Sequence record: PP274704.1
DNA: 64,000 nucleotides
Strand: one strand, 5' to 3'
Source of the DNA: Escherichia phage ECp13
Below are positions 2,419-59,300 of the stretch, piece by piece. The notes beneath the pieces were generated by a model. That model was given only the letters and a program-made list of their open reading frames with translations, had not been told where the DNA came from and ran no database searches. The position numbers were made by a program, and so were the translations under genes. Every line of letters starts with the position of its first letter. Position 1 is the stretch's first letter.

Positions 2419-2727
2419 GTGAAACAGAACAAGATTGAAGTCTATGGAATTCCAGATGAAGTAGGTCGTTGTCCTGGATGTCAATCAGTTACAAAACTTC
2501 TAAAGGAGCTCAATGCTCCTTTTACTTTCTATAAAGTTCTTACAAATAATGGTAAGATTGAGTATGATCGTCCACTGATTGTATCTCTTGCTAAACGCGC
2601 TGGATTCACATCTCTTAACATTCGTTATCCAGTCATTTTCATCAATGATTCTAGACAAAAGAATATTAAACACTTCAAAGAAACTCTCATTTCACTTGGA
2701 TATGATAGAGATATCATAGAAGATTAA
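2419..2727 (+). CDS. nrdH: Glutaredoxin-like protein NrdH (GTG start)
   Basis: 102 aa with CPGC redox motif; position next to nrdG. Confidence 0.7.
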   Translation: MKQNKIEVYGIPDEVGRCPGCQSVTKLLKELNAPFTFYKVLTNNGKIEYDRPLIVSLAKRAGFTSLNIRYPVIFINDSRQKNIKHFKETLISLGYDRDIIED

Positions 2728-2729
2728 GA

Positions 2730-2752
2730 CGGGCCCTCTGGGCCTTTCTTTC
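2730..2752 (+). terminator. Hairpin GGCCC-tct-GGGCC followed by T-rich tract
   Basis: Inverted repeat immediately after nrdH stop. Confidence 0.45.
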
Positions 2753-2780
2753 TCACATTCTGTATATTACCATTCTAAGC

Positions 2781-2819
2781 TATCGTTCCCTTCTTATCGT
2801 TCCCTTCTTATCGTTCCCT
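2781..2819. repeat. Tandem direct repeat, 14-nt unit TATCGTTCCCTTCT x ~2.8
   Basis: Read directly: tatcgttcccttct tatcgttcccttct tatcgttccct. Confidence 0.9.
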
Positions 2820-2832
2820 AAAATAATTTTCA

Positions 2833-2872
2833 CAAAGTTGTTTACAACAAGTTCAAACTGTGGTATTATTAA
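2833..2872 (+). promoter_or_regulatory. T4-type early promoter (GTTTAC -35, 18 nt, TATTAT -10)
   Basis: aaagttGTTTACaacaagttcaaactgtggTATTAT. Confidence 0.55.
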
Positions 2873-2899
2873 CATATGAATTGCCTTTGAGGATTTGAT

Positions 2900-3076
2900 A
2901 TGGTTGATAAAGAGATTAAAAGAGATCAGTATTATCGTGTTAACGGACATATTGTTATTGTTACAGCAGTAGATGATCTAGATGTTCATTATACTGTACT
3001 TAAATGGAATAAACAGATGATTTGCGATCGTGCTGTATTTAGTTCAGTTGCTAAGGAAATTAAACTCCATGGGTAA
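2900..3076 (+). CDS. Hypothetical protein (58 aa)
   Basis: ATG-initiated ORF downstream of early promoter, below ORF-track size cut-off. Confidence 0.3.
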   Translation: MVDKEIKRDQYYRVNGHIVIVTAVDDLDVHYTVLKWNKQMICDRAVFSSVAKEIKLHG

Positions 3077-3362
3077 AACGTATCGTCGTAAAGATTTAAA
3101 AGTACGTGATTATGACTATTTCGGAAAGCGTAAAGCTCCTGATGGTGTAAGTCATAAAGATATGGTTGAAAACATTTTTCGCTCTGATAAATGGCGTAGA
3201 ATGAAAGGCATTGATTCAGAAGTTAAAGATGAGCTAAATCGCCAATTACGTGGTGAAGTAAGAAAGTTGAAAAAATCAGTTTACATTGATGATGATTTTG
3301 ATTATAATACTTCTCAACGAGTTGCTAAGCGCAAATCAAACGAGTGCTATCGTTACAGCTGA
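3069..3362 (+). CDS. Hypothetical basic protein (97 aa from first ATG)
   Basis: ORF track 3030..3362; first in-frame ATG at 3069. Confidence 0.5.
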   Translation: MGKTYRRKDLKVRDYDYFGKRKAPDGVSHKDMVENIFRSDKWRRMKGIDSEVKDELNRQLRGEVRKLKKSVYIDDDFDYNTSQRVAKRKSNECYRYS

Positions 3363-4565: not shown

Positions 4566-4643
4566 TTGATATCCTCTATGCTTTAAGATAGATCTTCAAA
4601 TATTATGATATAATAGATCTATGAATTGAGCTAAGAGGTGAAA

Positions 4644-5201
4644 ATGTCAGAAACTAAGCCTAAATATAATTACGTAAACAATAAAGAGCTTTTACAAGCT
4701 ATTATTGATTGGAAAACAGAATTAGCAAATAATAAAGACCCAAATAAAGTAGTTCGTCAGAATGATACTATCGGATTAGCCATTATGCTTATTGCAGAAG
4801 GCTTATCTAAACGTTTCAACTTTTCAGGATACACCCAATCCTGGAAACAAGAAATGATTGCAGATGGTATAGAAGCTTCTATTAAGGGGCTTCATAATTT
4901 TGATGAAACGAAATATAAAAACCCACATGCATATATAACTCAAGCTTGTTTTAATGCATTCGTCCAACGTATTAAAAAAGAACGTAAGGAAGTTGCAAAG
5001 AAATACAGTTACTTCGTTCACAATGTCTATGACAGTCGTGACGACGATATGGTTGCGTTAGTGGATGAAACTTTTATTCAAGACATCTACGATAAAATGA
5101 CGCATTACGAAGAATCAACCTATAGAACACCGGGGGCTGAAAAGAAAAGTGTTGTAGACGATTCTCCTAGTTTGGATTTTTTATATGAGGCTAACGATTA
5201 A
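4644..5201 (+). CDS. 55: Late-transcription sigma factor gp55
   Basis: 185 aa from ATG 4644 ([23 protein letters not shown]...), matches remembered T4 gp55 N-terminus and length. Confidence 0.9.
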
Positions 5202-49701: not shown

Positions 49702-50358
49702 TTATTTAGCCCTTCCTAATATTCTGGCCGCCTGAGCACATATTGATTCAAGGCGGTCATTACTTATATGATCATTTCTATACCAGTACATGGTTATTGT
49801 TCCAGCATAGATATTATCCAAATTGAAATATGGACAACTGTACATGTAATTTATTTCGGGAGTAGGCTTTTTAGTCGGTAAAAAAGCAAATTTTGAGTTG
49901 GAATAATAATGACGTCCATTTAAATGAACTGCATATTCATCCATAGTTTTATCAACAGGATATCCTCCAAGTGATTTTTCACTTATTGTTGAAGGTAATT
50001 TTCCTTCATATGCTATAATATCAACAAAATAGTTTAAGTTTTTAGGGCGGAAAGAATACACCGCACTAAAGTCTGCCTCAGATGATATATGAACTATCTG
50101 GAGTTGTTCCAGGGCGACAGATTCAAAGCGTGCATTTCTTTCCTTTTCAATAATTTCACTGTATGTTTCATACTTTGATTGCTTATAGTACTCAAAGAAA
50201 CTATCTCCCCTATACCAAACAATCGCCATTATAAACAAAAGAATTACGACAGCTACCCGGGAAGCAAGAACTTTCCCGGTAGCGTTATCTTTGAACAAGC
50301 GATCTAGAACACCAAACAGAACATCAGAGGGCGAAAATGATATTCTAGGTGCTGCCAT
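49702..50358 (-). CDS. t: Holin T
   Basis: 218 aa; MAAPRISFSPSD...; one N-terminal TM helix plus large periplasmic domain. Confidence 0.9.
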   Translation of the reverse strand: MAAPRISFSPSDVLFGVLDRLFKDNATGKVLASRVAVVILLFIMAIVWYRGDSFFEYYKQSKYETYSEIIEKERNARFESVALEQLQIVHISSEADFSAVYSFRPKNLNYFVDIIAYEGKLPSTISEKSLGGYPVDKTMDEYAVHLNGRHYYSNSKFAFLPTKKPTPEINYMYSCPYFNLDNIYAGTITMYWYRNDHISNDRLESICAQAARILGRAK

Positions 50359-50388
50359 AGACCCTCCTTTTAAGGATATTTATTCAAA

Positions 50389-54511
<4,123 letters not shown>

Positions 54512-56362: not shown

Positions 56363-59300
56363 TTATTCAACCCATTCAAATTTAACCGTTTTATTCACTG
56401 GGTCAGGAATAATGCGAACATTACCAATTCGTAAGAAATCACGAATAGTAAGATTCCCCATTATAGCATTATCAGATGGTAAAGCACCGATATCAGATGG
56501 CTGAGGAGGGTTACCTCCATCAAATACCTGAACAAAACTTGACCAAGAGTTTTTGGTTTTCTGCCATGTACGCGTCCAGCGAGTGGTACGTGCTTCTGGA
56601 GTCGTTGGATAAGTAATCCAATCTTGGTAAAGTGAATCGAGTGTGTTACCAAACTGAGTCAATGTACCAGGAGATTTAACCTCTTCGCCACGTTCTAAGT
56701 ATGGAAGCCCAGTCACTTCATTAGTTTTTTCAACCATTTCAAAATAACCCGGGAACTGGTTATAAGTGGCTGAATCATTAATATCGATTGACCAGAATCC
56801 TACAGTATCAGATGTTGGCGCACGGGTATATAAGTCAGATGTTTTAACACCTTGAGAACGAATTCTCGAGTTAACAGTCAAACCACCTGAATTTATAGTA
56901 GCACCTTTGGCAATGATTAAGCTTTCACCAATCGTTACTTGACCAGATGCATTATTAATAGTTAATGGACGTAATCCATTAAATCCACCAGTCTGATCGC
57001 CCGATGCAGTAAGCATAAAATTCGTTACTGACCCGTCATTGCGAACAATAAAACCATAATTTCCGTTAATAGCACGGAAAGCATTTGCGCTTCGAGAAAT
57101 AATTTCACCACTTGCAGTGACTGAATTACCAAATGTTGCTACACCATTTGCATTCAATGTTCCTAAAGCATTCACATTTATTGGCATTACAGTACCATTA
57201 ATGCTAAATGCTATATTACCATCTTTATCGCGTTGAGAATAAAAGTGATAAGATGTTTCATCACTAACTTCAAATACGGTAGAACGTGTTGTGTTTGATT
57301 CCCCACTAAATTGATTCCCCCACACGCTGACTGTCATCGTTTGAGCCGGGTTCGTTCCAGTTTGAGGTCCTTTCTCAAAAATCAGACGAGTTGCTGTTCC
57401 ATCAGTATTAGAAATAGTTAGTGTACTATTTGCCGAAACTGATCCACCAAACGTAGCAGTACTAGATGATACAAGAGGGGCACTCAGATTCGTTTGTTGT
57501 GTTAAGGTTAGTGAACCATTAACCGTCTGCGCAATATCCCTACGAATGAACTGGGATGAATCTAGACCATCCAATAAATTACTATCTGCAGCTTTTGCTT
57601 TTAACGGCAAATAATTTGCTAATACACGGTTTAATTCATATGGCGATACTGCATAGCTATTTTTTTCGTATAATTCTAATGACTGTGTTGAACCAACGGT
57701 ATCATTACCAACGAATGTAATTGAACCAGATGAAGTTTTAACAAAACCTCTTACCAGAGTAGTTGCTGCCCAAGTAGGTTCACTCTGTACAATCCATTTT
57801 AAATTTTTTGGAGATACAGCAGTATTTGCTGACGTTCCAGCTACAGTTTCAACCTGAGTTGCAACTTTAATAACGCCTTCTTGCGCTTCAGTAGATTTAG
57901 TACCTAAAAGCTTTTTAGGAGTTATTAGAACATTATCTAATGTTCCTGCAGCAGCTTCAACTTGTGTAGCCACACGAAGTGTACCACGCTGTGTCTCATT
58001 TGCTTCAAGAATATTAAGGGTATAATGGTCCCAGAGAGTTCCTGATTCAACTAATCCAGATAGAGCAACAACAGAAGTACGATCAGTACTATTAAATCTA
58101 GTTTTAATTTTTAATGGTGTAGAGATACGAGTATCGTCGACGCCTGCGTCGAATTCAACTTGTGTAGCAATTTCAGCTATACCACTTAAACTTTCAGTTG
58201 CTTTACGGTCATTTAAAGTTTTAGGAGTGACTGCACGAGTATAATCAGTTCCAGTATTAACTTCACTTTGCGTAGCAATTTCAATTAAACCAATTCTTCC
58301 ATCAGTTGATGTCTTTTTATGTAACGTTTCTGGCGTTACAACCGCATTTGCCCATCCTTCTTGACTCTGTCCAGCAATTACTTCACTTTCAACTGCTAAA
58401 ATTACTGCGCCTTGCTGTGTTGGAGTAGCTTTATACTGATCCAGTGCTTTAGGCGAAACAACTAAATTATTAGTGTTTTTATTGTAAACATTTGTACCAT
58501 TTAATTCACGACTAGAAGCTGGAGTAGCTCCTGCAGTAGATACAAAGGTTACAATACCAGATAATGATTCAGAACCTTGTCGAGCTTGAAGCTTTTTAGG
58601 AGTGATGATTGTAGTATCATCAGTACCTGCGTTAGTTTCTTGCTGTGTAGCAATTTCAGCAACACCTCTACGAGTTTCTGTAGCAGTTCTTTCATTCAGC
58701 TTTTTAGGAGTGATGATAATATCGTCAGCAAAAGAGAACGTAGTATCCTGATTCACTTGAGCGGTAGTTGCTATTCTTGCGATACCTCTACGAGTTTCTG
58801 TAGCAGTACGGTTAGCTAATGTTTCTGGAGTAATTGCTAATTCTTTTTGTGGAGAATTTTCTAAATCGACGTTAGCTTGAGCTTGTGTAGCTAAAGCAAT
58901 TACACCTAATCTTGCTCTAGTAGAATTATTTAAAGAATCGACTCTTTCAACCGTTGGAACGTTTTGCTGTACAACCCAGTATTTTCCGTCAGAATCTTCG
59001 ATATAAGCAAGTTGTAAAACTGGAACATAATTAGTTTCACCGTTAAAAACTAATTCTTGAACAGTCACCCATTCAGCCTCAGGCGGATATTCTGAACGTT
59101 TTGGGAATTGCAGCAATTGAACTGAAGAAGCAATTTTATCTTCACCGGCAGCTTTGATTTTAACTGTTTGGCCTTTTCTCATGTAATTCATGGAAATTTT
59201 AACAGTATCACCAATTGAAATATCGGTCGGAAGCTGAAGCTCAATCGTTTGAGTTGTTCCGTTATTCGCACCAAATACCATAACTTCTTCATTTGGACGA

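Follow-up and report, generated by a model that had tools for sequence, protein, structure and literature searches.

A 14-nt tandem repeat upstream of early promoter P2 in a T4-like phage: a strain-specific and probably neutral one-unit expansion

Introduction

The Streisinger slippage model, which was first proposed from work on bacteriophage T4, accounts for short duplications and deletions between direct repeats. In T4-type phages, composite terminator/early-promoter motifs are known as PeSL (promoter-early stem-loop) cassettes (PMC2839356, PMC4122927). Typical T4 early promoters have UP elements, which lie at −40 to −60 and contact the alpha-CTD, and T4 also has largely unmapped Rho-dependent sites between the early and delayed-early genes (PMC2988021). 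The mapped T4 replication origins are oriA near soc, oriC near rI.-1, and oriE near repEA, with others near uvsY and gene 34; oriE is the only one with iterons, whose conservation among related phages has been reported (PMC3016281).

A sequence-only reading of the 64-kb stretch of phage DNA analysed here (the window) had pointed to a 14-nt tandem repeat in the intergenic region downstream of nrdH. In this study, I examined the anatomy of this repeat, its copy number in related genomes, and its likeness to the systems above.

Results

The nrdH-55.6 junction of a T4-like genome

As judged from its sequence, the window phage is a Tequatrovirus (T4-like). Its first 20 kb share 98.4% identity with Shigella phage Sfk20 and 97.8–98.2% with many other Tequatrovirus genomes, the phage collection searched contained no identical record, and the gene order is that of T4 read on the minus strand. 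The following genes were assigned from open reading frames.

62–1621: NrdD, C-terminal part
1618–2088: NrdG
2204–2416: 55.8-like membrane protein
2419–2727, plus strand: nrdH (glutaredoxin-like), the upstream neighbour of the array, with Pfam Glutaredoxin and PHROG thioredoxin-domain matches
2900–3076, plus strand: gene 55.6 homologue, the counterpart of T4 55.6, with a phrog_2283 match
4638–5201: late sigma factor gp55

The encoded NrdH is 99% identical to T4 ORF 55.7/NrdH, and a GAGGA ribosome-binding site (2889–2893) lies ahead of the 55.6 homologue. The order from nrdH to 55.6 is identical in T4, UGKSEcP1, Lutter, EC121, and OES_C-2. The words "comC alpha 55.6" in a reference title were taken to be an allele name of comC-alpha (goF) and not to denote gene 55.6. 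Further upstream, the mobC homing-endonuclease gene, which is located between nrdD and nrdG in T4, is apparently missing from the window phage, since the nrdG start at 1618 overlaps the nrdD stop at 1621. Judging from the coordinates alone, the I-TevII group I intron in nrdD is probably missing too, since the NrdD frame is continuous over 62–1621.

Anatomy of the 14-nt array

The array occupies positions 2781–2819 and is composed as follows.

2781–2794, plus strand: repeat unit 1 (TATCGTTCCCTTCT), the net extra unit compared with all relatives
2795–2808, plus strand: repeat unit 2, common to relatives
2809–2819, plus strand: partial repeat unit 3 (TATCGTTCCCT), common to relatives

Since the copies are identical, it is arbitrary which unit is counted as the new one. 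At position 5 of the partial unit, the window has G while most relatives have A. Tandem Repeats Finder reported a period of 14, 2.8 copies, 100% matches, and a score of 78, which is the top tandem-repeat score in the window. A second repeat search placed copies at 2781–2794, 2795–2808, and 2809–2822, the third at 79% because the match is limited to its first 11 nucleotides. Both programs thus bear out the initial count of about 2.8 tandem copies. The perfect period-14 match run covers 25 positions and is the longest in the window (the runner-up has 16), and the longest period-14 run in 200 first-order Markov simulations was 15. This confirms that the array is real and far beyond chance.

Other tandem repeats were seen in the window. 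A perfect 9-nt repeat (CCACCGCCG, 2.7 copies) at 50696–50719 is probably coding on one strand; it lies inside a region of about 50200–52800 that is home to most of the top C-over-G windows of the plus strand. Tandem Repeats Finder also listed two-copy repeats at 51227–51267 (period 21, 90% matches) and 57132–57178 (period 24, 78% matches).

Terminator, spacer, and early promoter

The elements flanking the array are the following.

2731–2755, plus strand: intrinsic terminator of the nrdD-nrdG-55.8-nrdH unit, found by terminator scan (hairpin 2731–2745 and a T-rich run)
2756–2780, plus strand: indel-tolerant spacer of 25 nt between the terminator and the array
2818–2839, plus strand: UP-element-like A/T tract (CTAAAATAATTTTCACAAAGTT), −58 to −37, adjoining the array
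2841–2869, plus strand: core early promoter (−35 TTTACA at 2841–2846, 17-nt spacer, −10 TATTAT at 2864–2869)

The GC-rich hairpin (GGGCCCTCTGGGCC) comes right after the nrdH stop at 2727, and its T-rich tail extends to 2755. According to the scan, it is the sole terminator-like site in the nrdH-55.6 intergenic region, and the same terminator is annotated in phage Lutter. The promoter hexamers match sigma-70 at 10 of 12 positions, with a TG at 2861–2862 ahead of the −10 element, and fit the T4/PST early-promoter consensus TTTACW-N17-TAYWAT. The promoter aligns base for base with the "early promoter P2" annotated in the T4 record Y00122; by this alignment, it is the homologue of T4 P2, the promoter of gene 55.6. 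The sequence-only placement of the repeat between the nrdH terminator and an early promoter was therefore correct.

The transcription start is presumed to lie near A2876, a position deduced from the promoter, and the array occupies −95 to −57 relative to this presumed +1, immediately ahead of the UP-like tract. The tract CTAAAATAATTTTCACAAAGTT has one mismatch to the UP consensus NNAAAWWTWTTTTNNNAAANNN. The array itself was tried as an UP element and rejected on its position, its composition (14 C and 3 G in 39 nt), and the presence of the UP-like tract at 2818–2839.

Five early promoters elsewhere on the plus strand (16885, 43113, 43601, 46904, and 63583) share a long near-identical cassette that extends well past the −35/−10 hexamers: an A/T run, TTTTCACAAAAC[G/T]G, TTTACA, and further on TGTGGTAYTAT. 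The P2 promoter beside the array has the same TTTTCACAAAGTTGTTTACA core as those cassettes.

Copy number in related genomes

Is the copy number of the repeat variable among relatives? A 301-nt query around the array matched 504 phage records, all of T4-type. The best identity was only 95.3%, because each top match is about 14 nt shorter. Copy number was read from the alignment span in about 130 of the 504 records, including the top 60 and 60 evenly spaced ones, and came to 1.8 throughout. In these two sets of 60, the spans fit 1.8 copies when small separate indels are allowed for, among them, in the evenly spaced set, a separate 6-nt indel at the 55.6 start. The two largest span outliers, EC121 and OES_C-2, have deletions in the spacer but retain all 1.8 copies. 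A consistent picture came from a 65-nt query centred on the array, to which the best 40 records all align as two overlapping pieces over 50–51 nt.

Direct alignment of seven genomes (T4, UGKSEcP1, Lutter, EC121, OES_C-2, and PhiZZ6 among them) also showed 1.8 copies, as did six of six IMG/VR contigs and four of four metagenome contigs. The IMG/VR contigs are the six genuine T4-like loci kept from 116 loci that were hit by loose-anchor patterns, nearly all of them by chance. A multiple alignment of 17 sequences (the window and 16 relatives) was built for the comparisons below. A degenerate pattern for 2.8 or more copies was unmatched in IMG/VR, in the metagenome collection, and in 185,579 prokaryotic genomes, and a tight-anchor scan of genome contigs gave no match. 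Among the relatives whose copy number could be read, none has 0.8 copies and none has 2.8 or more. Within the collections searched, the 2.8-copy state is unique to the window genome.

The suggestion of a slippage-prone variable-number repeat thus stands in part: the window has exactly one 14-nt unit more than its relatives, but the comparison of related genomes revealed no variation among them. A hypermutable locus was considered and set aside, since at least two head-to-tail identical copies are present but frequent differences among relatives were not found. As the copy number is not variable in the population, the difference is better read as a rare single event.

A state found in one genome might also be an assembly or sequencing artefact, and its uniqueness is what such an error would look like. 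However, any read would be much longer than the 39-nt array, which is not of low complexity, so collapse or expansion errors are unlikely. Alternatively, the array might be a replication or packaging signal, as the earlier reading had proposed. T4 packages DNA by a headful mechanism and has no unique pac site. One T4 origin, oriE, is indeed marked by direct repeats; on the other hand, there are only 2.8 contiguous copies here, no initiator gene was identified beside the array, and the mapped T4 origins are located elsewhere (PMC3016281), which speaks against the proposal. It is most unlikely that the extra copy is explained by either an artefact or such a signal. An iteron-type origin in particular was rejected, because the array is not at a mapped origin and the repeats are confined to Tequatrovirus.

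Origin of the extra unit

The difference between the window and its relatives is exactly one 14-nt unit, and the flanks are otherwise collinear. A difference of exactly one unit is what slippage or unequal exchange characteristically leaves behind. The two copies are not identical to each other in most relatives; T4 has TATCGTTCCTTTCT followed by TATCATTCCCT. I found a minority lineage with identical copies: at least 17 records equal the window over the array stretch minus one unit, and five of those 17 (PBM-1, ADUt, EPIMAM01, ECP2301, and Ec_MI-02) also rank with the closest genomes when 20 kb are compared. These homogeneous 1.8-copy relatives imply that the immediate ancestor of the window phage had a perfect 25-nt tract of period 14. 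Two identical copies are an ideal substrate for slippage.

The following course of events may be proposed. The ancestor of the genus would have had 1.8 copies, an old imperfect tandem duplication, and the two copies would have become identical in the minority lineage. During replication or recombination, a nascent strand may then have mispaired by one unit, either by Streisinger-type slippage or by unequal exchange between the 11-nt direct repeats, to give a third copy. Because the added unit is identical to the others, the 81 bp nearest the promoter stay the same, and the only change would be a terminator 14 bp further away. Most likely, to judge from the sequence comparison, the extra copy has no sequence-specific function and hardly affects expression, if at all. 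The reading that I consider likely is that an older imperfect duplication in a non-coding spacer has grown by one unit in this strain, a change that is probably neutral. In this account, slippage and neutrality are what I infer from the observed anatomy, the one-unit difference, and its uniqueness.

Another short tandem polymorphism was seen 100 nt from the array, where the start of gene 55.6 (2900–2911) has a 6-nt in-frame tandem indel, ATGGTTG[TGGTTG]ATAAA. The window and some relatives have ATGGTTGATAAA, while T4 and many others have ATGGTTGTGGTTGATAAA or ATGGTTATGGTT. This second slippage-type polymorphism indicates that such events recur in the region.

Conservation of the array and its spacer

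The 25-nt spacer at 2756–2780 tolerates indels: EC121 has a 13-nt deletion, apparently bounded by TAT direct repeats, OES_C-2 has a 7-nt deletion, and one IMG/VR contig has an additional nucleotide. The substitution density is 12% in the 1.8 shared copies of the repeat, compared with 8% in the nrdH coding sequence, 18% in the terminator, and 16% in the core promoter, in a comparison that is weak because it is based on 17 sequences, 10 of which were found with anchors forcing identity in parts of the spacer and the repeat edges. The repeat is polymorphic at three of 25 positions, as much as its neighbours. These values suggest that the constraint on the spacer and the repeat is weak. One point against neutrality is that all Tequatroviruses examined keep the 1.8-copy core, and that its distance from the promoter is constant despite the adjacent deletions. 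Its retention could reflect constraint rather than recent common ancestry.

Outside the genus, the repeat was not recognisable in Mosigvirus, Gaprivervirus, and Dhakavirus or in the one Klebsiella T4-type phage compared. Mosigvirus AV118 has the same layout of hairpin, spacer, UP tract, and GTTTACA with a different 3′ part of the spacer; its spacer aligns weakly over the array stretch and contains no 14-nt repeat. The intergenic regions of Gaprivervirus (74 nt) and Dhakavirus (66 nt) have no such spacer.

A C-rich spacer and the question of Rho

The array is part of a strongly biased segment. Positions 2744–2818 (75 nt) contain 24 C and 5 G and are 79% pyrimidine, which puts the segment at the 99.9th percentile of the window for C-over-G excess on the plus strand, and there are 20 YC dimers in 74 nt of the C-rich spacer. 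At the same position relative to the other 15 plus-strand matches to the early-promoter consensus, 14 have 9–15 C and 11–24 G, and the exception (site 60282) has 24 C and 12 G. The orthologous spacer of Mosigvirus AV118 (about 825–892) has 21 C and 4 G in 68 nt. This bias hints at a role that depends on composition.

Such an unstructured C-rich spacer of about 75 nt behind the nrdH terminator might be a putative rut-like Rho-loading site. In that event, read-through transcripts would be stopped before P2, and an extra unit made by slippage would do no harm or even be of slight advantage, since the C-rich tract is longer with it. The base counts and YC dimers are in favour, the RNA is predicted to be unstructured apart from the terminator hairpin, and the stretch is intergenic and hence not covered by ribosomes. 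Furthermore, the bias is specific to this locus, as 14 of the 15 other consensus matches are without it, and is common to the orthologous Mosigvirus spacer. However, an intrinsic terminator is already present at the end of nrdH, and rut sites are poorly predictable from composition alone. In its 5′ half, the Mosigvirus spacer is homologous, though diverged, so that common descent may account for part of the shared bias, and the lack of a comparable spacer in Gaprivervirus and Dhakavirus also counts against Rho. Rho loading at this site is thus doubtful, and so is an effect of the extra unit through it.

A protein-binding array or an RNA element

A phage or host protein bound to the 14-mers might modulate P2 or the terminator beyond the effect of the UP element. 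The identical tandem copies lie where upstream activators act (−95 to −57), and the 1.8-copy core is kept in all Tequatroviruses sampled, even beside a deleted spacer. Nevertheless, outside the array the 64 kb contain no match to the 14-mer with two or fewer mismatches. At three or fewer mismatches there are eight matches, three of which are the array itself, compared with 5.7 expected; the search for the same motif elsewhere thus revealed no dispersed sites, and each relative genome has a single matching place. The motif has no inverted repeat, is not conserved in other T4-type genera with the same promoter architecture, and, with three of 25 positions polymorphic, evolves no slower than its neighbours. 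With a spacing of 14 bp, successive sites would be on different faces of the helix. T-even phages have glucosyl-hydroxymethylated cytosines, a modification that hampers the binding of most host proteins to C/G-rich DNA sites, and close relatives have an annotated alpha-glucosyltransferase gene in the matching region. The binding array that had been suggested at first is very unlikely on these grounds. By eye, the repeat units have two to three mismatches to an IHF-like consensus (WATCAANNNNTTR).

An RNA role of the repeat was also considered. The RNA fold of 2725–2915 showed no significant structure (z = −0.18). The terminator hairpin was the sole element kept in the centroid fold, in which the CU-rich repeat does not pair stably with the ribosome-binding site of 55.6, and Rfam gave no match at the repeat. 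An RNA role was rejected on the z value, the lack of such pairing, and the lack of an Rfam family. A sub-threshold Rfam match to the potC RNA at 3110–3157 on the minus strand (21.9 bits against a gathering threshold of 44, E = 0.15) falls within a coding region and is most likely a chance match.

An antisense mini-ORF across the repeat

One small reading frame overlaps both P2 and the repeat.

2780–2875, minus strand: antisense mini-ORF of 31 amino acids (28 in most relatives), with its ATG at 2875

It matches phrog_13445 (28 residues, function not assigned) with E = 3.9e-21. In relatives the frame reads MLIIP...GNDKKGTIA, and the extra unit changes its end from GTIA* to GTIRRER*. If this were a real small protein, the repeat would encode its C-terminus and the extra unit would be a frameshifting C-terminal change. 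In addition to the PHROG match, AAGG is located 6 nt upstream of the ATG, and the three substitutions in the repeat are all synonymous at third positions, with two more of this kind in the promoter spacer. Overall, however, third positions make up only five of the 10 variable sites, a non-significant share, and there are radical changes at residues 6 (Q/R/W) and 17 (I/N). In Lutter, the frame is cut to 18 amino acids by a 1-nt deletion, and the C-terminus is altered in the window, EC121, and OES_C-2. Because indels truncate or alter the frame in these four of 17 sequences, it is likely a gene-caller artefact that was turned into a PHROG family, and the PHROG match records only that gene callers predicted the frame. 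Moreover, the frame runs antisense across a strong early promoter, no late-promoter motif (TATAAATA) was seen nearby on the minus strand, and the curated T4 reference has no such gene. A genuine protein is extremely unlikely, and the mini-ORF is likely spurious. The initial remark that the array is too short for a coding repeat holds, given a unit of 14 nt and an antisense frame that is not preserved.

Discussion

The pyrimidine-rich spacer with the 14-mer array as its core may, taken as a whole, be a functional composition-dependent element. This is unlikely, although conceivable, and Rho loading would be its leading candidate role, backing up the terminator and shielding P2, with a binding array less likely. 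If either were true, the element could be tuned through units gained by slippage. Under the favoured reading of a neutral expansion, the finding matters little beyond showing neatly how a T4-like genome may gain a repeat unit by slippage in nature, and the array could be used as a strain marker for the isolate. It would be of wider interest only if the C-rich spacer proved to be a mapped Rho-dependent site, as T4 sites of this kind are largely unmapped (PMC2988021).

How does the locus compare with the known systems? Like PeSL cassettes (PMC2839356, PMC4122927), it combines a stem-loop terminator with a downstream early promoter matching TTTACW-N17-TAYWAT. Unlike them, it has a pyrimidine-rich spacer of about 85 nt, with the repeat inside it, between the stem-loop and the −35 element. 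PeSL cassettes go with gene shuffling, while none is seen here among the aligned Tequatroviruses, in which the order from nrdH to 55.6 is constant; the nrdH/55.6 junction is not mentioned in the two PeSL papers. Like upstream activator sites and UP elements, the array adjoins the −35/UP region of a very strong sigma-70 promoter, but UP elements are A/T-rich and lie at −40 to −60, whereas the array is C-rich and lies at −95 to −57.

The array resembles oriE in having short direct repeats in non-coding DNA beside an early promoter. It differs in that oriE is near repEA and has spaced, conserved iterons, while the array is located elsewhere and its 2.8 contiguous copies are not conserved in other genera. 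As in rut sites, the spacer RNA is C-rich, G-poor, unstructured, and untranslated over about 75 nt (the norm for rut sites is about 70–80 nt); in contrast, the segment here is directly behind an intrinsic terminator, and Rho dependence is suggested by its composition alone. With no mechanistic difference apparent, and with the event deduced here by comparison, the locus agrees with Streisinger slippage in showing an exact one-unit gain in a pre-existing perfect tandem array with collinear flanks.
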